Shown: positions 6,125 to 50,609, numbered from the stretch's first letter. The stretch: 55,214 bases of DNA from Candidatus Magasanikiibacteriota bacterium (GCA_002716765.1 PBBY01000007.1:1-55214), one strand, 5' to 3'. The notes: generated by a model from the letters alone, not told the origin. Numbers and translations: made by a program.

Positions 6125-7210
6125 ATGTCGTTGCATACAAAAGATTTTGATTATCATTTGCCCATTCATCAGATTGCACAACAATCTGTAGAACCGCGCG
6201 ACCAGGCAAAAATGATGGTGATTAACAAAAATAACAAAAGGATTGAGCATACACAATTTTTTTCTATAATAGATCATCTGAAAAAAGGAGATGTGCTTGT
6301 ATGGAATAATTCAAAAGTGTTTAAAGCTCGTTTATCGGGAAAACTTTTAACTCAAAATAATAAAGGTTTGTGGGACCATAAACGCGATATAGAATTATTT
6401 TTGGTTCGACCAATGGAAAACAAAGGCGTGTGGAAAGTGTTGGCAAAACCAGGAAGACATGTAAAACACGGTACGCGAGTTATGATTAATAAAGATGCAA
6501 ATTTTTATTGTGACGTGATGATAAAAGAGGGTGGGGGCACCATTTTGGTACAATTTCCTTTTGACGAAGATGTGGTACGTAATTTAGCAAATCGTTTTGG
6601 AAGTATTCCTATTCCACCATATGTAAAAGATGAGCCACATCAAATAGAGAGCTACCAAACAGTATATGCAAAAGAAGAAGGGTCGGTCGCGGCACCAACT
6701 GCCGGGTTTCATTTTACTCCAACGCTTATAGAACAATTACGGCAAAAAGGTATTATTTTTGCCGAAGTAACATTACATGTTGGTTTGGGAACATTTTTAC
6801 CAGTCAAAACAGAAAAAATAGCTGATCATACTATGCACAGTGAATGGGTAGAGCTTACCAAAGAAAATGCCGATATTATAAATTTAGCAAAAAAAGAGGG
6901 GAGGCGAGTTGTTGCTGTTGGTACCACGTCAGTCAGGACTCTTGAAGGCATTGCGTCGTTGCCGCTTTTTACCAATAATCACAATAATTTACCAGTATTT
7001 TCCGGAGATATTAATATCTTTATTACTCCAGGCTTTTCTTTTCGCATTATTGATGGCCTTATTACTAATTTTCATTTACCAAAATCAACACTTCTTATGT
7101 TGGTTTCTGCGTTTATTGGTGACAGGGAATACACATTAGACTGTTACAATGAAGCAGTAAAAGAAGCTTACAGATTTTTTAGTTTCGGGGACTCAATGAT
7201 TATTGTGTAA
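6125..7210 (+). CDS. queA: S-adenosylmethionine:tRNA ribosyltransferase-isomerase
   Basis: FDYHLPIHQIAQQSVEPRDQAKMM and VAVGTTSVRTLE motifs. Confidence 0.9.
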   Translation: MSLHTKDFDYHLPIHQIAQQSVEPRDQAKMMVINKNNKRIEHTQFFSIIDHLKKGDVLVWNNSKVFKARLSGKLLTQNNKGLWDHKRDIELFLVRPMENKGVWKVLAKPGRHVKHGTRVMINKDANFYCDVMIKEGGGTILVQFPFDEDVVRNLANRFGSIPIPPYVKDEPHQIESYQTVYAKEEGSVAAPTAGFHFTPTLIEQLRQKGIIFAEVTLHVGLGTFLPVKTEKIADHTMHSEWVELTKENADIINLAKKEGRRVVAVGTTSVRTLEGIASLPLFTNNHNNLPVFSGDINIFITPGFSFRIIDGLITNFHLPKSTLLMLVSAFIGDREYTLDCYNEAVKEAYRFFSFGDSMIIV

Positions 7211-8561: not shown

Positions 8562-9467
8562 ATGTCTGAATCGCAAAAAATCTTTACATATTGCTGTGCT
8601 TTTGTGCTAGTGTTTCTTGTTTTTGTTTGTGCGCGGGAATGGTATGGGTATGTTTCTTTTAGAAAACAAAACCCCGGAGTAAACAAACCAATTCGCTCTT
8701 ATTCTATTCCTCGAATAAACGAAAAAGATGTTCGGTCGGCAAAAGAGGTAGAAACTACACTAATAACACCAACAGAGCCGGTTGTAAAAGTACAAAAAAA
8801 CGAGCAAAAAACAGTTCGTGTTAGTGTAACTCAAGTAAATGAAAAACCTCTAGAAACTAACCAAGAAGATCTGGGGTTGGTGCAGAAAACCATAAAAGTA
8901 TCATTACCAAAAGACGTTAATTTGCCGGTGCCGTTTACTTCACAGGCGCCAGAAAAAATTTGGACACAACCGTGGCAAGATGCTTGCGAAGAGGCGACGA
9001 TTCTTATGCTTGATGCATATTATAAAAAATATAACCTTAGTCCACTTTTTGCCAAAGATGAAATGCAAAAAATGGTAGACTGGGAAGACGAAAAAGGGTG
9101 GGGATTAAGTATTTCGGCAAAACAACTCCAAGAATTATTTTTTGATTATTCCGGAGGAGCACATGCTTTGCGAATTGTAGAAAATCCCACTTTATTGCAA
9201 TTAAAACAATTTCTTGCAAATGGGCATCCTGTTTTAGCGGCGGTTCATGGAAAGTCATTGCGTAATCCATATTTTAATGATGGGGGGCCAGACTATCACA
9301 CGGTTATTCTTCGTGGATATACTGGAACTGACTTTATTACTAATGAGCCTGGAACGTGGCGCGGTGAGGGTTTTATCTATTCACAAGACATAATTATGAA
9401 TGCGCTTCATGACTGGAACGGGGGAGACGTTGTTAATGGAACACCGGTTGTTTTGGTTTTAAAATAA
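8562..9467 (+). CDS. Membrane-anchored C39-like cysteine peptidase domain protein
   Basis: N-terminal TM helix; VPFTSQAPEKIWTQPWQDACEEA (Cys) and DYHTVILRGY (His) resemble the Peptidase_C39_2 family. Confidence 0.6.
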   Translation: MSESQKIFTYCCAFVLVFLVFVCAREWYGYVSFRKQNPGVNKPIRSYSIPRINEKDVRSAKEVETTLITPTEPVVKVQKNEQKTVRVSVTQVNEKPLETNQEDLGLVQKTIKVSLPKDVNLPVPFTSQAPEKIWTQPWQDACEEATILMLDAYYKKYNLSPLFAKDEMQKMVDWEDEKGWGLSISAKQLQELFFDYSGGAHALRIVENPTLLQLKQFLANGHPVLAAVHGKSLRNPYFNDGGPDYHTVILRGYTGTDFITNEPGTWRGEGFIYSQDIIMNALHDWNGGDVVNGTPVVLVLK

Positions 9468-9469
9468 TG

Positions 9470-9478
9470 TTATCCACA
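9470..9478 (+). promoter_or_regulatory. Perfect DnaA-box 9-mer TTATCCACA, 6 nt upstream of a -35 element
   Basis: Exact match to the consensus; same geometry as the box at 46812. Confidence 0.5.
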
Positions 9479-9484
9479 ATTTGC

Positions 9485-9513
9485 TTGACAGAAAAATAAA
9501 CATTTGTAATACT
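9485..9513 (+). promoter_or_regulatory. Sigma70-like promoter TTGACA-16/17-TAATACT
   Basis: -35 at 9485-9490; -10 around 9507-9513. Confidence 0.5.
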
Positions 9514-9519
9514 AAGTAT

Positions 9520-9731
9520 TACATGAAGTGGAGTACTTCTGTAGGTTTTATTAGGTATATGAACATACATACTAATACAATTATACATAACACCATAGCG
9601 GCGATGGAACTCATGATTGCATATTTTTGGTTTACTCTATTTAGTAAGCGAATGGTGGTTTGTACGCATATTGGTAAATAATATATCTTAAATAAAATAT
9701 TTACACAAATCACCAGAAATGGTGGTTTTTT
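9520..9731 (+). promoter_or_regulatory. About 210-nt leader RNA with mutually exclusive antiterminator and terminator helices
   Basis: 9653-9662 (TGGTGGTTTG) pairs 10/10 (one G-U) with 9706-9715. The same 9711-9715 also forms CACCA-gaaa-TGGTG followed by GTTTTTT (9711-9731). AATGGTGGTTT occurs twice. Confidence 0.5.
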
Positions 9732-9745
9732 ACTTAAACTTATAT

Positions 9746-10690
9746 ATGACAAAACAACACATCTCTCATGAAAATATCGCTATTGCTAATCTTGGAGGCA
9801 TAGACCTTTCTCTTTCGGTAACCCATGTCGGAAATAGAAAAGCACAAAATAAGGTATTAATTATAAATAATTTGCACGGTAATGAGTTGACGGGTTTTTA
9901 TGTATTAGAAGAAGCGCTTCAAAGTATGCCAATAGTTGAAAATGGCTTACTTTCTATTATTTCTTCTGCAAATCCTTTGGGGCTTTTACATAAACAGCGC
10001 TTTATGCCAATAGATAATGTTGATCTTAATCGAGGTTACCCGCCACAAGCAAAAGAAAGGGGAATACAGGTGGTACTTAAGAACACACTTCTTGAAATAG
10101 GGTCTAAATATGATGTGATTATAGATCTTCACACATTTGTTCGCCCATCGCTGAGTGCTGCAATGGTTGTTTCGCAGGCAAGCGAGAAAAATACTGAACT
10201 AATAGACGATTTGTCAAAAACACTTGGTGTTGAAGTGGTATATAAAATGAATATTCATGGTTCGGAGGAAAAACGTGTAGCGAGCGCATTTGCTTTTCAG
10301 ATGATAGCACAGGGTAAGGCAGCCTGTGTAGTCGAGTATTCGCCAATTCAATATACATCTGGATCCGAGGTTACACAGTTTGCACAAGGGTTGGTGCGAG
10401 CACTAAGCAGGTGTGGACTATATGATTTACCAGAAGTTAGCCAGGTAAAAAAAGAAATACCAACGTTTGAAAGAAGGCAAATGATGAGTCGAAGTTCTGG
10501 CTTATTTCTTCCTAAAAAAGCATTAAAAGAGCAGGTAGATAAAGGAGAGGTTTTGGGGTATATTATTGATGTAAAAACATTAGAAAAAAAACCACTTATT
10601 TCTGAATATTCTGGAGTAGTTACGGAGATTGCGGCAAGAGAATTTTATGTTTTTGGTGAAAAGCTTGTAACGATAGGAGTAGAACAGTAA
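9746..10690 (+). CDS. Succinylglutamate desuccinylase/aspartoacylase-family predicted Zn deacylase
   Basis: NNLHGNELTG (His/Glu ligands) and IIDLHT motifs. Start moved to ATG 9746, downstream of the leader terminator. Confidence 0.65.
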   Translation: MTKQHISHENIAIANLGGIDLSLSVTHVGNRKAQNKVLIINNLHGNELTGFYVLEEALQSMPIVENGLLSIISSANPLGLLHKQRFMPIDNVDLNRGYPPQAKERGIQVVLKNTLLEIGSKYDVIIDLHTFVRPSLSAAMVVSQASEKNTELIDDLSKTLGVEVVYKMNIHGSEEKRVASAFAFQMIAQGKAACVVEYSPIQYTSGSEVTQFAQGLVRALSRCGLYDLPEVSQVKKEIPTFERRQMMSRSSGLFLPKKALKEQVDKGEVLGYIIDVKTLEKKPLISEYSGVVTEIAAREFYVFGEKLVTIGVEQ

Positions 10691-10805
10691 TGTTCTCTCC
10701 GCATAGATATGTATTTGAGATGAGTAGTTTTTTTCTCCTCTAATCATATCTGTGAGAGAGTATATTACAATGTAAAACCCGGACAAACACAAAGGAGGTG
10801 TTTTT

Positions 10806-12047
10806 ATGTCCAACATTCCTACCGAGAGTCGAGAGTCGGTAAAAATCGCGTTTGCAAGTAAATACACAGACGGTAATCAGCTTGGATTTGATACCTTGCC
10901 AAGTCCTATTGTACTACCTGATTCAAAACGTGAACTTATTATGACTGCAGGTCGTCGTGCTGCAAATGTATTGTTGAAAACAAACACCCTTTTTTCTGAA
11001 ATTCTAAGAGGTCGACACAAGGAATTGGCTTGGATGGAAGATTTATTTTTCGCAAGTATTTTACCAGAACATCGTAATCTTGCACGTGAATTGGCTGTTG
11101 CAACAGCCGGACTTGTTCCAAAGAATTTTCGTCTTGACTTATTCAGTGATGGGACTATCGCAGAAATCCAATGTCCTGGTTCAGGTTGGGGGTTTATTGC
11201 TGGTCTTGAGGATTACTATAACGTAAAATCTTCCACTGCTGTCAATTCATTTTCACAGTGGTTGGGAGGACAAACAGGTGTTTGGTGGTTATACAATGAG
11301 GGTATGGAGAGTAGTGTCACGCACCTTGCAAATAAGCTTGCATTAAGCGGCGTTAATCTTTTGGTGCAAAAAACACCAGAATTCGACCCAAACAGTACGC
11401 AGTGGCGGGTTGTCGTAAAGCGCCCACCATTACCGCAACTCTTAGAGAGCGAAAAAGGACGTACCCTGCTTTATCGTTGGCTTGATGGTCAAATTGACAT
11501 GGATCCTATTCCATCAATGATTCCGGAGACTAAATTTGCGATGGTGTTACTACATCATCCACAGACCAAGGATTTCTTTACTAGTGATGATCGATCTTTG
11601 TGTCATCCGACAACGTTGGTAACAGGTCTTGATCATCCTATCGGATCATATCGTATTGGAGATGCGTCAGGTCTTTCGCGGAGTCGTCGGCAGTTTGTGT
11701 TAAAGTATGGGGGTGCTCGAGCGTATGACCGTTTTGGGGGCCATTGTGTTTATGCACTAAATAAAATGAAGCGCCGACCAGATATCGCTCGTGTTGTTGC
11801 CCGCGCAGTAAATGAGTGGAATAAGGATCGCGAGGGGTGGGTTCTTCAACCTTTTGTTTCTTACAAATCAACACTCAAAGAGCTTGGTTTCGGCAGTGGT
11901 TCTGATAAAATGTATGTGTTATGGCGACCGGGCTTTCAGGTGCAAGATAATGGAGAGGTTGCCCATGTTGGCACAATAGTAAATCTGCGCAAGTCGTGGA
12001 AGGTTCACGGAGCCTCCGACACCTGTTTTGGTTTGTGTGTTCTGTAG
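10806..12047 (+). CDS. Divergent glutathionylspermidine-synthase/YgiC-like (pre-ATP-grasp) amidoligase candidate
   Basis: FRLDLFSDGTIAEIQ resembles SRLDLAWDGTGEPKLLENN of E. coli YgiC. FVLKYGGARAYDRFGG and GWVLQPFV follow in the same order. Strong SD AAAGGAGG. Confidence 0.4.
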   Translation: MSNIPTESRESVKIAFASKYTDGNQLGFDTLPSPIVLPDSKRELIMTAGRRAANVLLKTNTLFSEILRGRHKELAWMEDLFFASILPEHRNLARELAVATAGLVPKNFRLDLFSDGTIAEIQCPGSGWGFIAGLEDYYNVKSSTAVNSFSQWLGGQTGVWWLYNEGMESSVTHLANKLALSGVNLLVQKTPEFDPNSTQWRVVVKRPPLPQLLESEKGRTLLYRWLDGQIDMDPIPSMIPETKFAMVLLHHPQTKDFFTSDDRSLCHPTTLVTGLDHPIGSYRIGDASGLSRSRRQFVLKYGGARAYDRFGGHCVYALNKMKRRPDIARVVARAVNEWNKDREGWVLQPFVSYKSTLKELGFGSGSDKMYVLWRPGFQVQDNGEVAHVGTIVNLRKSWKVHGASDTCFGLCVL

Positions 12048-12058
12048 GATAGTTAAGC

Positions 12059-12081
12059 TAAACTAAACTAAACTAAACTAA
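12059..12081. repeat. Pentanucleotide microsatellite (TAAAC)x4 + TAA
   Basis: Perfect tandem repeats 12 nt after the stop codon at 12045-12047. Confidence 0.9.
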
Positions 12082-12113
12082 GAACCTCCTCAATCTTTTT
12101 TGTTCTTTATTTT

Positions 12114-12141
12114 GCCTAAGTTGTATCAGCTTAGGCTTTTA
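12114..12141 (+). terminator. Intrinsic terminator
   Basis: GCCTAAG-N9-CTTAGGC followed by TTTTATT. Confidence 0.6.
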
Positions 12142-12170
12142 TTATTGTACTTTTTTATAAACAGAAGTAT

Positions 12171-12199
12171 TTGGATTCCTATGATAAATTTGGTATGAT
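12171..12199 (+). promoter_or_regulatory. Promoter TTGGAT-17-TATGAT; ATG 9-10 nt after -10 (near-leaderless)
   Basis: -35 at 12171-12176, -10 at 12194-12199, start at 12209. Confidence 0.4.
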
Positions 12200-12208
12200 T
12201 ATGATACT

Positions 12209-14293
12209 ATGATACATTTTGAAAACGAACTTAATGCTGAACAAGTCGCCATTGTAAAAAATGCCAGCGGACCATGCCTTGTTTTGGCTGGGGCTGGGTC
12301 TGGAAAAACACGAACTATTTGTTATCGCGTGGCGTATTTACTGGAACAAGGTGTGGCACCAAAAGAAATGCTTTTGGTAACATTTACCAATAAAGCGGCA
12401 AAAGAAATGACAGAAAGAATTCAACAGATGACACAAGGAGAAATTCGTTTGCCGTGGTCTGGAACGTTTCACAGTATTGCGTGTAAAATATTAAAACAAT
12501 ATGCACCTCTTCTTGGGTATTCAAATGCATTTACTATTTTAGACAGTGGAGATAGTGTAGATTTAATAAAACAGTGTATAAAATTAGAAGGGGTCGACAC
12601 AAAACAACGAAGATTTCCTTCGGCTCGTGTTGTGCTTTCACTTATTTCTTTTGCAAAAAATGCACAAAAAACAATAGAAGAAGTGTTAGACGACAAGTAT
12701 CCAAAATGGCTTGATTTTACCGACACTATTTTGCGGATTGCACAAGAATATGAAAAAAGAAAACGACTGGCAAATGCAATGGACTTTGATGATTTGCTTA
12801 CCAATATGTTGGCACTTCTAGTTTCTTCACCTTCGGTAAAAGAGCGATTTGCACATCAATTTACCCATGTCATGGTTGATGAGTATCAAGACACAAACAG
12901 GGTTCAAGCAGCTATTATTTCGTTACTTTCTTCTCGGCATAATAACCTACTTGTGGTAGGGGATGATGCTCAGAGTATTTACTCTTTTCGTGCCGCCAAT
13001 ATTGCTAATATTTTAGATTTTGAAAAGACGTATAATACTGCACAAATATTTAAACTAGAAACAAATTATCGCTCGACGCCAAATATTTTGGATGTGGCAA
13101 ATTGTGTTATTACAAAAAACACAGAACAATACGAAAAAACTTTGGCAAGTATGCAGCCACATTGTAGCAAACCAGAACTTCATGCATTTGCCGACACAAA
13201 AGAAGAGGCAGAATTTATTACAGAAACTATCGCAACATTGCATAATGAAGGTGTTCCTTTATCGCAGATCGCTGTATTGTTTCGCGCTGCATTTCATTCA
13301 CAAGCTTTGGAAGTTGAATTAGTAAAAAGAAATATTCCATATGAATACAGAGGTGGTGTACGATTTTTTGAACGAGCACATATAAAAGACACGTTGGCAT
13401 TTTTGCGAATTATACATAACCCAAAAGATGAGATTGCGTGGAATAGAGTGCTTACTATGCAAACTGGTATTGGTCCGGCAAGTGCACAAAAAATTATTCA
13501 TGCAATCAAAAATAGTGAAGAAGATATTTCTTTAGAAACGCTTCAAGAGTGTGGATCATTACTTTCTGTAAAAGCAAAAATTGGATGGCATGATTTTATG
13601 AATATGTGGCAAAGTGTATGTAATGCAAAACAAGAGCCGGCACATATGATTGATGCATTGCTTGAATCAAAATATGCAGAATATATAGAAGGTGAGTATG
13701 TAGATTACAGAGAGCGTTTGCAGGACATAGAACAACTTGCTACTTTTGCAAGTGCAAATGATGATCTTCATACATTTTTAACAGAAGTAACATTACAAGA
13801 AAATTTTACCATTGCACAGGCACAAAAACAACAGCAAAATAATACGGAAGAAAAAATAGTTTTATCCACCATTCATCAGGCAAAAGGATTGGAATGGCAT
13901 ACTGTTTTTGTTATGCACATGAGTCAAGGACAATTCCCAAATGAACGCGCAATGGGAGAAAGAAATGGGATAGAAGAAGAACGGCGACTATTTTACGTGG
14001 CAATTACACGAGCAAAAAAACAATTATTTTTCTCTTACCCTATTACCTCGCAAAGACATATGGTTATGAATGGGCCAAGTATGTTTTTAGAAGAAATTGA
14101 TAAACGCCTGATCGAAGAATTCCATTTTGGTGGATCAACGGTATTTTTTGGTAATGAGAACGATCAAAAATCTCTTCTTTCTTTTACTGATCCAGGTGAT
14201 GACATTGATAATATAGAATATATTCCAGAAGATGAGCCGGTGTGGTCAAGGAAAGGAAAAACAAATTTTTTGGGTGATATTAATGACTTTTAG
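12209..14293 (+). CDS. UvrD/PcrA/Rep-family ATP-dependent DNA helicase
   Basis: Walker A AGAGSGKTRT; VMVDEYQDTN; TIHQAKGLEW; YVAITRAK. Confidence 0.9.
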   Translation: MIHFENELNAEQVAIVKNASGPCLVLAGAGSGKTRTICYRVAYLLEQGVAPKEMLLVTFTNKAAKEMTERIQQMTQGEIRLPWSGTFHSIACKILKQYAPLLGYSNAFTILDSGDSVDLIKQCIKLEGVDTKQRRFPSARVVLSLISFAKNAQKTIEEVLDDKYPKWLDFTDTILRIAQEYEKRKRLANAMDFDDLLTNMLALLVSSPSVKERFAHQFTHVMVDEYQDTNRVQAAIISLLSSRHNNLLVVGDDAQSIYSFRAANIANILDFEKTYNTAQIFKLETNYRSTPNILDVANCVITKNTEQYEKTLASMQPHCSKPELHAFADTKEEAEFITETIATLHNEGVPLSQIAVLFRAAFHSQALEVELVKRNIPYEYRGGVRFFERAHIKDTLAFLRIIHNPKDEIAWNRVLTMQTGIGPASAQKIIHAIKNSEEDISLETLQECGSLLSVKAKIGWHDFMNMWQSVCNAKQEPAHMIDALLESKYAEYIEGEYVDYRERLQDIEQLATFASANDDLHTFLTEVTLQENFTIAQAQKQQQNNTEEKIVLSTIHQAKGLEWHTVFVMHMSQGQFPNERAMGERNGIEEERRLFYVAITRAKKQLFFSYPITSQRHMVMNGPSMFLEEIDKRLIEEFHFGGSTVFFGNENDQKSLLSFTDPGDDIDNIEYIPEDEPVWSRKGKTNFLGDINDF

Positions 14294-18798: not shown

Positions 18799-18827
18799 TT
18801 GAGTATTGTGGATAATTGGTATATACT
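18799..18827 (+). promoter_or_regulatory. Promoter TTGAGT-17-TATACT with a perfect DnaA box (TGTGGATAA, 18807-18815) inside the spacer
   Basis: -35 at 18799-18804, -10 at 18822-18827. Confidence 0.4.
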
Positions 18828-28421: not shown

Positions 28422-28430
28422 TGTGGATAA
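28422..28430 (-). promoter_or_regulatory. Perfect DnaA-box 9-mer (TGTGGATAA on the plus strand), followed by palindrome GTGGTA-ac-TACCAC
   Basis: Exact consensus; palindrome at 28435-28448, immediately before the -35. Confidence 0.45.
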
Positions 28431-34663: not shown

Positions 34664-35203
34664 ATGTCGCAATTATATACACAATTTAAAGAAAACATTG
34701 TCCCTGCACTAATGAGTGATTTCAGTTACAAAAATATCCATGAAGTCCCGGCTATTAAAAAAGTTACTATAAATGTTGGGTATGGACGTCATTCAAAAGA
34801 TAAGGGTTTTATAGACAATGTAGAAAAGACATTAACACAGATTACTGGACAAAAACCAGTCCACAACGAAGCAAAGAAAGCAATTTCAAACTTCAAGATA
34901 AGAAAAGGGATGGATATTGGTATGTCAGTCACACTCCGTGGAGAGCGTATGTACGAATTTATTTATAGACTTATCAATCTGGCAATTCCTAGAATACGTG
35001 ACTTTCGTGGATTATCCACAAACGGTTTTGATAGACAAGGTAATTACACTTTTGGTATAAAGGAGAATGTAGCTTTTCCAGAAATTGCTGCAGAGTCTTT
35101 AGACAAGATCCACGGATTACAGATTATTATTACTACGTCAGCAACAAACAAAAAAGAAGGTATGGCATTATTAGAAAAAATCGGCATGCCGTTTAAAAAA
35201 TAA
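34664..35203 (+). CDS. rplE: 50S ribosomal protein L5
   Basis: L5 family; operon position. Confidence 0.95.
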
Positions 35204-46811: not shown

Positions 46812-46820
46812 TTATCCACA
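46812..46820 (+). promoter_or_regulatory. Perfect DnaA-box 9-mer TTATCCACA, 6 nt upstream of a -35 element
   Basis: Exact consensus; same geometry as the box at 9470. Confidence 0.5.
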
Positions 46821-49220: not shown

Positions 49221-50609
49221 ATGGAAGATCCTATAATGCAATTACCACAAATCCAATCTAATGGATTACATAACATTTTTGTTGGGGTTGAAAATCCACG
49301 ACCAAAATTTATTAAATATGGTGTGCCCGGTGCTGCGGGATATGACATGTCACACGCTACTCGTCTTTCGGTAAGAGATTCATTTAAAAAGGTTGTACAA
49401 CGTCCTTCTTTTTGGTATATTCCAAGATCAGAAGATGTTGTACGTATTCTTACTGCTGCCCATCATGTACACTTGTCTCGTGTGAGGAAAGGCGAAAAAC
49501 GTGCGTCTGATCCTATAACTGTTATTACTGTGGGTGATGGGTATGGTGATATACCTGCGCTTATTCTTACAGCTGCAAGAAAAGAGGGTTTGCATGTTAC
49601 GTGTCAGGTTATAAGTACTCAGGCAACAACAAGACATATGCAAAAAGGATTGTATGGTGCTGTCAAAGGACTTTCTTTTTTTTCTGGGTCACAATTACAA
49701 ATGCTGTTACATGTTTGGGGCGGTCAGCCATATATTGTTTCGGAGATTTCTACGCTTGCTGATTGCATAATACAATCAAGAAACTCTTTGGTTAATTTAC
49801 ACAGATTGATTCAACTATATGTTGATAGCTATGTTGCAAGGAATATCTCATCTGTTGGTGTAAAAACGTATGCTCGTATTCTCAGAGAAGATTTTGGTGT
49901 ACAATTTCCATCTGACTTTGTGATTCGTTCCGGAACATTGTATCAAATGTTTCAAGAAGGGGTGCGGTTTACACAACACATGCCATTGCTCGATTTTATG
50001 AGTAAAAAATATTCAGAAATGTGGAATAAAGGGTTTGTTCGTATAGAGGAGCTTTTGGTTAGTTCTTGCAAGTACGGTGCAGATATGGTCTTACAAACAA
50101 TTCCTTCTTTAGATTGTGCTGTTTCTGTGTTCGTACGACTAGTTCGTGCTGGTATTGTGGGCTACATTTTTGATTGTCGTACACAAAAGGATGTGGATAA
50201 GAGTGTGCCATCTACTAAGAACGTCTCATTTGATCTTATAAAAGATACTGCTATTGGAGAACGGTATATGCCATTTTGTGCATGGAGAGCAGTTTCAACT
50301 TCCGAACTAACCGGTCTTCGTGCGTGTGATGGCGATATTTTTGCAGTGTTCCCGCCTTCTGGTTATGGTCATGAACTATCAAAAAAACAAGATGGTGAAC
50401 ATTCGAATCCGGTATTTTTATTAAATGGGTGTGTTGATCTTTTGGATAGTGGTGCTATGTATCGAGAGGTTGGCAGCGTGAAAAGTTTTGGCATGTTTGG
50501 GTGGGAAAAATCACCCACACTTAAGGGTGTACCTTCTTCATGTGTTGTGTCATTGCAAGACCTGTCAGAATATTCAGTAAGAGATGTTAAAAGACTTTTG
50601 AATCCCTAA
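49221..50609 (+). CDS. Orphan protein D (462 aa), Cys/His-rich, possible Rossmann-like VITVGDGYGD segment
   Basis: Strong SD GGAGGA 5 nt before ATG 49221; no recognised family. Confidence 0.6.
   Translation: MEDPIMQLPQIQSNGLHNIFVGVENPRPKFIKYGVPGAAGYDMSHATRLSVRDSFKKVVQRPSFWYIPRSEDVVRILTAAHHVHLSRVRKGEKRASDPITVITVGDGYGDIPALILTAARKEGLHVTCQVISTQATTRHMQKGLYGAVKGLSFFSGSQLQMLLHVWGGQPYIVSEISTLADCIIQSRNSLVNLHRLIQLYVDSYVARNISSVGVKTYARILREDFGVQFPSDFVIRSGTLYQMFQEGVRFTQHMPLLDFMSKKYSEMWNKGFVRIEELLVSSCKYGADMVLQTIPSLDCAVSVFVRLVRAGIVGYIFDCRTQKDVDKSVPSTKNVSFDLIKDTAIGERYMPFCAWRAVSTSELTGLRACDGDIFAVFPPSGYGHELSKKQDGEHSNPVFLLNGCVDLLDSGAMYREVGSVKSFGMFGWEKSPTLKGVPSSCVVSLQDLSEYSVRDVKRLLNP

Follow-up and report, generated by a model that had tools for sequence, protein, structure and literature searches.

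Genomes of the phylum Candidatus Magasanikiibacteriota are about 1 Mb in size. The DNA studied here, a stretch of 55,214 nucleotides (GCA_002716765.1, PBBY01000007.1:1-55214) referred to below as the window, belongs to an assembly of 886 kb in 22 contigs that is about 90% complete, and has a G+C content of 0.373, the genome value being 0.371. Two open reading frames (ORFs) on one strand, 9746-10690 (314 aa) and 10806-12047 (413 aa), encode proteins whose named relatives come from Patescibacteria, the Candidate Phyla Radiation (CPR), under the names Magasanikbacteria, Kuenenbacteria and 'Patescibacteria group bacterium'. An earlier note on this DNA had proposed that they form a pair, a zinc deacylase and a divergent amidoligase of the GspS/YgiC type. 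Here, we describe a computational analysis of this pair. The interval 9485-12136 is a single operon made up of a promoter, a probable attenuator leader, a gene for a Zn deacylase, a gene for a predicted ATP-grasp ligase and a terminator. Its features are listed below, together with a short element just upstream; the closest relative, locus L047, is near-identical, and its deacylase is 93% identical.

9470-9478, plus strand: TTATCCACA, a 9-mer resembling a DnaA box, 6 nt upstream of the -35 hexamer
9485-9513, plus strand: sigma-70-type promoter, TTGACA-17-(TG)AATACT, the best promoter-like site in 9400-12300
9559-9681, plus strand: leader small ORF (sORF) of 40 codons, MNIHTNTIIHNTIAAMELMIAYFWFTLFSKRMVVCTHIGK, with the aromatic cluster Y22-F23-W24-F25 at 9622-9633
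9707-9734, plus strand: intrinsic terminator, a 9-bp stem (AAAUCACCA/UGGUGGUUU) and a T-run, ending 12 nt before the deacylase ATG
9746-10690, plus strand: Zn deacylase of the AstE/AspA family, 314 aa (PF24827, AlphaFold2 (AF2) model, Foldseek, invariant residues)
10691-10805, plus strand: spacer between the genes, with an imperfect hairpin at about 10702-10755, CTCCTC resembling an anti-Shine-Dalgarno (anti-SD) sequence, and the SD AAGGAGGTG at 10793-10801
10806-12047, plus strand: predicted circularly permuted ATP-grasp amidoligase of an unmodelled family, 413 aa (AF2, Foldseek, conserved residues)
12054-12081, plus strand: (TAAAC)5.6 microsatellite, without a counterpart in L047 and probably not functional
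12114-12136, plus strand: operon terminator, a 10-bp stem, kept in L047, and a T-run

The upstream protein matches the AstE_AspA_cat domain (PF24827) with an E value of 6.8e-16 and 58.8 bits against a curated cut-off of 25 (Pfam hmmscan). The HxxE...H ligand pattern that had been picked out by eye is H44-G-N-E47...D127-x-H129, invariant in 30 homologs; in the alignment of 30 deacylase sequences, H44, E47, H129, E197, R85, N95 and R96 do not vary. From what is known of aspartoacylase (ASPA), we take these to be the Zn ligands, the general-base glutamate (E197) and an Arg/Asn-Arg clamp for an alpha-carboxylate, their counterparts presumably being H21, E24, H116, E178, R63, N70 and R71. The AF2 model (predicted local distance difference test, pLDDT, 93) has two domains, an M14-like catalytic domain and a C-terminal beta domain, and superposes over its full length on 3cdx, 6twm (DoeB/EutE) and 3na6 with template modelling (TM) scores of 0.81-0.84, DoeB/EutE at 0.84; 2qj8 also superposes. 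A profile search of the PDB returned 2qj8 (7.7e-25), 3cdx and DoeB. DoeB/EutE, which acts on N-acetyl-diaminobutyrate, shares the two-domain fold with the window protein. The cyanophycin-dipeptide hydrolase CphZ, which acts on the beta-Asp-Arg dipeptide and so breaks down the product of an ATP-grasp-type synthesis, has a like fold (TM 0.78), and aminoacylase 3 (AA3), which acts on N-acetyl aromatic amino acids, and aspartoacylase rank lower; the Zn and general-base set of the window protein is that of these enzymes. Identity to these characterised enzymes is only 16-20%, and the protein belongs to a separate, mostly CPR subfamily. By analogy, it appears to be an intact small-molecule amidohydrolase, and the amino acid that it releases should have its alpha-carboxylate free. 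An alternative deacylase ATG at 9719 falls inside the loop of the leader terminator.

The downstream ORF had been described as an apparent orphan, and it has no match in Pfam or NCBIfam. Among 63 family members (the window ligase and 62 relatives), Pfam hmmscan at E below 0.1 gave chance matches only, and the glutathione (GSH) synthetase models GSH_synthase and GSH_synth_ATP (PF03917/PF03199) matched none of them. GSP_synth (PF03738) matched E. coli and Caulobacter, which served as controls, and nothing anywhere in the window's genome. PDB profile searches with two alignments of the ligase family yielded nothing meaningful. Comparison by hhalign was non-significant against YgiC/YjfC (probability 0.13%), against the single human GSH synthetase sequence (identical to 2hgs_A), and against an alignment of 15 GSH synthetases (probability 0.26%), the last a shallow profile of vertebrate sequences only. 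Profile searches thus did not reveal the kinship to GSP_synth or ATP-grasp proteins that the earlier note had anticipated and, since none was significant, the ligase lies outside Pfam GSP_synth and GSH_synthase. The family itself is substantial: a word-indexed search returned 8 matches and an exhaustive one at least 118 clusters at 50% identity, spanning bacteria and archaea. It is annotated as hypothetical everywhere because it has no Pfam or NCBIfam model and no solved relative detectable by sequence.

Kinship emerges at the level of predicted structure. An AF2 model of the ligase, built from 9 sequences (pLDDT 83, predicted TM score 0.82), was compared with the PDB by Foldseek, and the best match was human GSH synthetase (E 3.8e-10, query TM score 0.59-0.60, identity about 10-12%), followed by E. 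coli YjfC (3.9e-9), a nematode GSH-synthetase-like effector, the fungal enzyme Cp1B (1.4e-7), YgiC (4.5e-7) and Trypanosoma brucei GSH synthetase. The ten best matches, at E values from 3.8e-10 to 9.6e-6 and TM scores up to 0.60, are all circularly permuted ATP-grasp ligases, with a probability of 1.00 for 2hgs, 8fbz, 7uk6, 9cjn, 7uka and 2wyo; classical, non-permuted ATP-grasp enzymes (DcsG, ITPK1) rank below them. Likeness to ATP-grasp/GspS folds, the absence of which would have counted against the proposed pair, is therefore present, to GSH synthetase, YjfC, YgiC and Cp1B. The label GspS/YgiC-like was apt for the fold and inapt as to Pfam GSP_synth membership, the nearest structures being eukaryote-type GSH synthetase and YjfC. 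On this model, the ligase is predicted to be a three-domain circularly permuted ATP-grasp enzyme and to found an unmodelled sister family inside the group that includes eukaryote-type GSH synthetase, GspS/YgiC/YjfC and Cp1B.

The conserved residues of the ligase fit this placement. Its motifs are FRLDLFSDGTIAEIQ (108-122), FVLKYGGARAYDRFGG (297-312), VLQPF (346-350) and a C-terminal NLRKSWKVHG, so the order of a K-containing segment, a hinge-like VLQPF and a Gly-containing C-terminal strand that had been read by eye is present in 10806-12047. The 63 sequences have a mean identity of about 26%; R109, K243, K300, W345 and Q348 are invariant among them, D111 and E120 are 98% conserved, K399 at least 94%, and Y301, G303, G311 and V400 at least 90%. 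R395 is also conserved, and the recurring motifs are K300-Y-G/A-G, W345-x-x-Q348 and K399-V-H-G. The E-x-N metal motif had been judged to be altered, and it reads E120-x-Q122 in the window ligase. Position 122 is Q in 47 sequences, H in 9, N in 6 and D in 1. Because Q predominates and a few members keep the canonical N, E-x-Q is best read as this family's version of the E-x-N Mg site. For the by-eye alignment of FRLD...EIQ with SRLD...ENN of YgiC, hhalign picks the same register, the score itself being non-significant; its path places EIQ on ENN and K243 on K267 of YgiC/YjfC. Against GSH synthetase, the path places EIQ on E144-I-N146, K243 on K305, VLK300 on VLK364 and WVLQ on YILM. These registers agree with the structural match. 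We infer that R109/D111...E120/Q122 form the hairpin that binds Mg and the gamma-phosphate and, by analogy, that K300 binds ATP, the Gly loop after it is the lid, Q348 lies in the hinge, and R395/K399 are the C-terminal Arg/Lys of the fold. Cp1B loses its activity without any one of R139, D141, E163 and N165 (PMC12568646), the residues that would correspond to R109, D111, E120 and Q122. Ligases of the deacylase-paired subfamily have motifs of their own, VWWLYNE at 159-165, KRPPLP at 205-210, R305, R309, H313 and R374, where relatives have other residues; these basic and aromatic motifs are consistent with a distinct, possibly anionic, substrate.

Related loci were gathered with a 9-sequence alignment of the ligase. 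Linkage of ligase homologs to deacylases, the failure of which had been offered as a second ground for abandoning the pairing, was found in every close locus examined, 11 independent loci. The deacylase gene lies directly 5' of the ligase gene, on the same strand, in the window, L001, L002 (the same as L004), L005, L026/L027, L028, L029, L030, L032, L033 and L047; in L028 a contig edge cuts the deacylase gene, and in L029 the two genes overlap by 14 nt. The identity levels of the two proteins move in step (49/50%, 43/43%, 37/45%), and a quick maximum-likelihood tree groups the 14 AstE-paired ligases in a single clade, supported at 100 in the SH-like approximate likelihood ratio test. In L031 the order is reversed, a more distant ligase (26% identity) lying upstream of the deacylase; the position of this ligase elsewhere in the tree suggests a second association or an older one. 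At L001 (5486-6573) and L002 (4995-6299, minus strand; 6407-6751, minus strand) the pair adjoins genes for TrpR-like helix-turn-helix (HTH) and LDcluster4 (LOG/SLOG-like) proteins, and a fusion protein of 434 aa in L002 combines the LDcluster4 domain with a second AstE/AspA domain.

Distant ligases (at most 26% identity) have partners other than AstE/AspA. In Proteobacteria, Acidobacteria and others (L003, L006, L008, L011, L013; 22-26% identity) the ligase gene lies in a conserved cluster with genes for a PycTM-like membrane protein, an aldehyde dehydrogenase and a 2-oxoglutarate (2OG)-Fe(II) oxygenase. By its appearance this cluster is an uncharacterised small-molecule pathway, and it recalls the oxygenase and ATP-grasp logic of E-64 biosynthesis. 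Relatives in Desulfobacterota adjoin genes for a major facilitator superfamily (MFS) transporter and ABC_sub_bind proteins, ligases of the sister clade sit in a polysaccharide gene cluster (Wzy, glycosyltransferases), and other CPR relatives adjoin Amidohydro_1 and HAD genes or a gene for 3-deoxy-D-arabino-heptulosonate 7-phosphate (DAHP) synthase. Because of these neighbours, the superfamily looks like one of small-molecule or glycan amidoligases; the pairing with AstE is a speciality of CPR bacteria.

The region upstream of the deacylase gene contains all the parts of an attenuator: a promoter, an sORF, alternative helices and a terminator. The promoter matches the consensus at 10 of 12 positions and has an extended -10 TG; it is identical in L047, which differs by one base between the 9-mer and the -35 hexamer. 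A copy of the 3' arm of the terminator stem lies at 9650-9661 and is a potential antiterminator, and both terminator and copy are identical in L047. There the sORF remains open, its length and stop unchanged despite many substitutions in its first half, with the cluster AYFCFILF. A hairpin and T-run occur at a like place in L001, L002, L005, L026, L029, L030 and L033. A search of the window and leader against Rfam found no riboswitch or T-box, an RNAI match being at chance level, and blastn with the leader as query detected no paralogue of it in the window's genome. The run of aromatic codons is a mixed one of Tyr, Phe and Trp, the Trp is not kept in L047, and region 1 of the attenuator is not conserved. 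As read from the sequence, this is probably a leader-peptide attenuator that responds to the supply of aromatic aminoacyl-tRNA.

Aromatic clusters recur in the sORFs of related loci: AYFWF in the window (...MIAYFWFTLF...), MYFYFIW in L001, GYWFYGFSY in L002, AWY in L005, AWYY in L033 and SYYYAY in L030. Over 9 leaders, the best aromatic counts in six residues sum to 32, against 15.2 +/- 3.8 in dinucleotide shuffles, and none of 1000 shuffles reached this value; only three leaders are individually below P = 0.03. Gene neighbourhoods point in the same direction. In L030 the pair is surrounded by genes for tyrosyl-tRNA synthetase, two prephenate dehydratases, shikimate dehydrogenase and a class IV aminotransferase, and in L032 it is preceded by genes for a class-Ib aminoacyl-tRNA synthetase, an aromatic-type decarboxylase and a chorismate mutase (CM_2). 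TrpR-like HTH genes flank the pair in L001 and L002, and the distant CPR relative mentioned above lies after the DAHP synthase gene. In the window's genome, tblastn with CPR queries detected no DAHP synthase, prephenate dehydratase or shikimate dehydrogenase. Its sole chorismate-mutase-like gene (CM_2; G000 C20:26741-28664, minus strand) overlaps the end of a gene of 547 aa whose N-terminus resembles, by eye, a U32-family peptidase. If that gene does encode a U32 peptidase, the prephenate from CM_2 may go into the hydroxylation of RNA and not into the synthesis of aromatic amino acids.

The distribution of the pair within the phylum is narrow. Among 401 genomes, 99 encode an AstE/AspA domain and 16 a member of the ligase superfamily, and the close ligase subfamily is present only in the window's genome; genomes of the same family and of the same order are without it. 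The order queA-tgt-[variable]-uvrD-ndk is kept in relatives. In a same-family genome, G281 (locus L044, G281:C10, 3892-7695), the variable slot is filled by genes for a PGM1_C-type protein of 495 aa, an M20 peptidase of 377 aa and a GCS2-like carboxylate-amine ligase of 309 aa, behind a like TTATCCACA-TTGAC promoter, an sORF (MNYTKQNNSVVIGLFIIKSPNW, then a stop) and a CCACC...GGTGG terminator. The PGM1_C-type protein has the classical C-terminal EINPR motif of a non-permuted ATP-grasp; homology between it and the window ligase was tested and none was detectable. A cassette of the L044 type was sought in the window's genome and not found, and the AstE gene there is single. The L044 genes look like a non-orthologous replacement of the window's cassette, and the occurrence of two non-homologous combinations of ligase and metallo-deacylase in one regulated slot argues for a shared function.

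Several further features of the region bear on how the operon is read. The 9-mer TTATCCACA also lies 5' of the homologous operon promoter in L001, L005, L033 and L044, as TTATCTACA in L026, and in reversed orientation in L002 and L032. The window contains 6 copies (9470-9478; 18807-18815, minus strand; 28422-28430, minus strand; 35012-35020; 46812-46820; 50192-50200, minus strand) against 0.74 expected, and none of 100 shuffles reached 6. The copies at 9470 and 46812 stand 6-7 nt 5' of a TTGACA -35 hexamer. We rejected this element as an operator specific to the operon, since it is enriched genome-wide and is associated with promoters only in part; it may be a lineage-wide promoter-proximal element.

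The strong SD noted earlier for the ligase gene is AAGGAGGTG, 5 nt before its ATG. The spacer in which it lies is 96% identical in L047. Besides its imperfect long hairpin, the spacer (window 10700-10810) contains CTCCTC about 55 nt 5' of this SD, and translational control of the ligase is possible; a match of the spacer to the trpB motif of Rfam was not significant (E 8.5; 19.9 bits, the gathering score being 59). The impression that the ligase gene is richer in G+C was correct (0.444 against 0.371 for the genome, in the top 1.5% of genome windows of the same size; G+C at third codon positions 0.35 against about 0.26), and the deacylase gene, at 0.375, is not raised. Horizontal transfer of the ligase gene alone was considered and finds no support, as the G+C of the deacylase gene is normal and both proteins diverge in parallel. 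The microsatellite and terminator reported after the ligase gene are both there, (TAAAC)x5.6 at 12054-12081 and a stem with T-run at 12114-12136 that is kept in L047. The microsatellite was rejected as a functional element; as the close relative has no repeat, it is taken to be a recent product of slippage. The C-terminus of the ligase also differs between the window and the microsatellite-free L047 (GLGVPRNN against GLCVL). The upstream ORF (8562-9467, 301 aa) has an N-terminal transmembrane segment and no Pfam match, and its product is probably a membrane-anchored papain-like peptidase, because the homolog at L047 contains PF13529 (Peptidase_C39_2). This gene is not part of the conserved pair at other loci.

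Taken together, these observations suggest a mechanism. The ligase would bind Mg-ATP and phosphorylate the carboxylate of a substrate to an acyl-phosphate, with R109, D111, E120, Q122, K243, K300 and the Gly loop, and R395/K399 as the predicted participants. An amine would then attack the acyl-phosphate to give an amide. Because the partner deacylase keeps the Arg/Asn-Arg clamp, an amino acid most likely provides the amine, by way of its alpha-amino group. Such a reaction would yield not a polyamine conjugate but an N-acyl-amino-acid or a pseudodipeptide whose alpha-carboxylate is free, and bonds of just this class are what the deacylase family cleaves; GSH synthetase and Cp1B likewise use the amine of an amino acid. 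The two enzymes would then make and break one small amide metabolite, or closely related ones, and the attenuator sensing aromatic tRNA would tie the module to the acquisition or management of Tyr, Phe or Trp in an organism where tblastn found no genes of the shikimate pathway. That the operon serves to make and break a small N-acyl-amino-acid or pseudodipeptide, and that a shortage of aromatic amino acids induces it, is to our minds probable, if some way from secure. Two arrangements were considered for the pair, one in which both enzymes act on the same bond, making, breaking and buffering a metabolite, and another in which they stand at two ends of a short pathway, protecting and deprotecting an intermediate.

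A number of points weigh against this proposal. Enrichment of aromatic residues is weak in L005, L026, L031, L032 and L033 (individual P 0.2-0.6), and is partly to be expected in AT-rich DNA. L047 has Cys where the window sORF has its only Trp, and the latter, hydrophobic sORF could encode a small membrane peptide. The neighbours of the operon in the window (tgt, a C39-like peptidase, uvrD, ndk) have no aromatic theme. On the side of the ligase, the residue equivalences derive from motif order and a non-significant hhalign path rather than from superposed coordinates, and the fold is assigned, without sequence-profile support, from one AF2 model of 9 sequences. Finally, starvation that induced synthesis and breakdown together would set up a futile cycle if the two enzymes shared both bond and compartment.

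In one alternative, the two enzymes would not act simultaneously on a single bond: the ligase would attach an acyl group, an aminoacyl group or a carrier to an intermediate, other enzymes, with genes elsewhere, would act next, and only then would the deacylase take the group off. During starvation the pair would finish, or get round, a step in the supply of aromatic amino acids; co-induction of both genes is then explained. Protection and deprotection are well represented in amino-acid metabolism, by LysX/LysK with LysW, ArgA/ArgE, DapD/DapE and the succinyl group of the arginine succinyltransferase (AST) pathway, and AstE itself takes off a succinyl protecting group. The replacement cassette of the sister genome includes an M20 enzyme, of the family of ArgE, DapE and LysK, together with two ligases; the pair lies inside aromatic biosynthesis clusters in L030 and L032, and a distant member adjoins DAHP synthase. 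However, the pair stands alone at most loci, no gene for a carrier protein is conserved beside it, and the shikimate-pathway genes that would supply intermediates were not found by tblastn in the window's genome. We regard a sequential pathway of this kind as rather unlikely, while giving it real weight.

The idea put forward in the earlier note, a writer and eraser of protein or peptide tags, is less probable still. In that scheme the ligase would add an amino acid or polyamine, in the manner of RimK, TTL/TTLL or YgiC/YjfC, and the deacylase would trim it as cytosolic carboxypeptidases do. YjfC and YgiC are indeed among the best structural matches, and AstE/AspA enzymes have a carboxypeptidase fold. 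However, neither a conserved small target gene nor a DUF1190 partner of the YgiB/YjfM type accompanies the pair, the deacylase falls among small-molecule enzymes (DoeB, CphZ, AA3, ASPA) and not among protein carboxypeptidases, and distant ligases lie in small-molecule or glycan clusters marked by aldehyde dehydrogenase, 2OG oxygenase, MFS, or Wzy and glycosyltransferases. A true enzyme of GSH or glutathionylspermidine metabolism, orthologous to GshB or GspS, is very improbable: GSH synthetases are the best structural matches, but the absence of PF03738 from the genome and of GSH_synthase and GSH_synth_ATP matches from the 63 members speaks against it, as do the loss of the positions that bind gamma-Glu-Cys (VWWLYNE and KRPPLP stand there instead), the lack of a CHAP amidase domain and an identity to GSH synthetase of about 10-12%. 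Least credible of all is a fortuitous adjacency, or a ligase dead through E-x-N to E-x-Q, for although the canonical Asn is replaced, the pair is kept in 11 loci at 35-50% identity with both genes intact, and Gln is the family norm at 122, where some members have N or H; the remaining catalytic positions are invariant or nearly so.

The make-and-break proposal can be set beside several characterised systems. Eukaryote-type GSH synthetase (human GSS, 2hgs/8fbz; PF03917, PF03199) shares with the window ligase, as modelled, a permuted topology, probably also the R-x-D...E-x-N hairpin near the N-terminus, and co-linear motifs (window ligase first): EIQCPGSGWG/EINTISASFGG, ETK/GTK305, VLKYGG/VLK364PQREGGG and WVLQ/YILM. 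The window ligase differs in having Gln for Asn, 413 rather than 474 aa, a deacylase partner and a CPR host, and in having lost the gamma-Glu-Cys residues. YgiC/YjfC and GspS (PF03738) have the same order of motifs, SRLD...ENN / SNK / VVKP / QQF / IRED, but the window ligase has no PF03738 match, an hhalign probability below 1%, no DUF1190 partner and no CHAP amidase; YgiC and YjfC are peptide-spermidine ligases, whereas the deacylase partner in the window implies an amino-acid product.

Cp1B is a fungal ATP-grasp enzyme that joins trans-epoxysuccinate to an L-amino acid in the biosynthesis of E-64 (9cjn; PMC12568646). Its R139, D141, E163 and N165 are essential for formation of the acyl-phosphate (PMC12568646) and would correspond to R109, D111, E120 and Q122 of the window ligase. 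It makes an N-acyl amino acid, and compounds of this class are substrates of AstE/AspA enzymes. Like the window family it was annotated as hypothetical before its characterisation, and distant relatives of the window ligase adjoin a 2OG-Fe(II) oxygenase. Cp1B differs in being fungal, in having no deacylase partner and in showing no detectable sequence similarity. The hmrA/ldmS operon of Staphylococcus aureus encodes an M20D amidohydrolase and an ATP-grasp L-Asp-L-Met ligase under control of Met/Cys starvation (PMC9486568). It resembles the window operon as a two-gene unit of hydrolase and ATP-grasp ligase controlled by amino-acid starvation, through CodY/CymR sites or an S-box riboswitch (PMC9486568). 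Its ligase is non-permuted, its hydrolase is M20D rather than AstE/AspA, its theme is sulfur, and its control is by riboswitch or repressor rather than a leader peptide. We found no description, in a literature of incomplete coverage, of the ligase family or of a CPR arrangement of ligase, deacylase and attenuator. The ligase is thus a new family of a known fold, and hmrA/ldmS is one characterised precedent for starvation-controlled operons of a ligase and a hydrolase.

Placement of the ligase in the GSH-synthetase/GspS/Cp1B branch of ATP-grasp enzymes gives its family, of at least 118 clusters, a testable chemistry. The exchange of cassettes at a single locus argues for selection on function and not on a particular enzyme. 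As a broader and more tentative suggestion, attenuator-switched, interchangeable cassettes of ligase and deacylase in CPR bacteria, which for the most part are unable to make aromatic amino acids (AstE/AspA with a GSH-synthetase-like ligase; M20 with PGM1-like and GCS2 proteins), may constitute an undescribed two-enzyme route for the capture, conversion or salvage of Tyr, Phe and Trp from amide-linked precursors of the host or environment. The findings are of interest for the annotation of a widespread hypothetical family, for cassette replacement at one locus and for the physiology of CPR bacteria, which have a minimal metabolism that is for the most part unexplained; in these organisms, the pair and its apparent attenuator point to a new way of handling essential amino acids that the bacteria themselves do not make.

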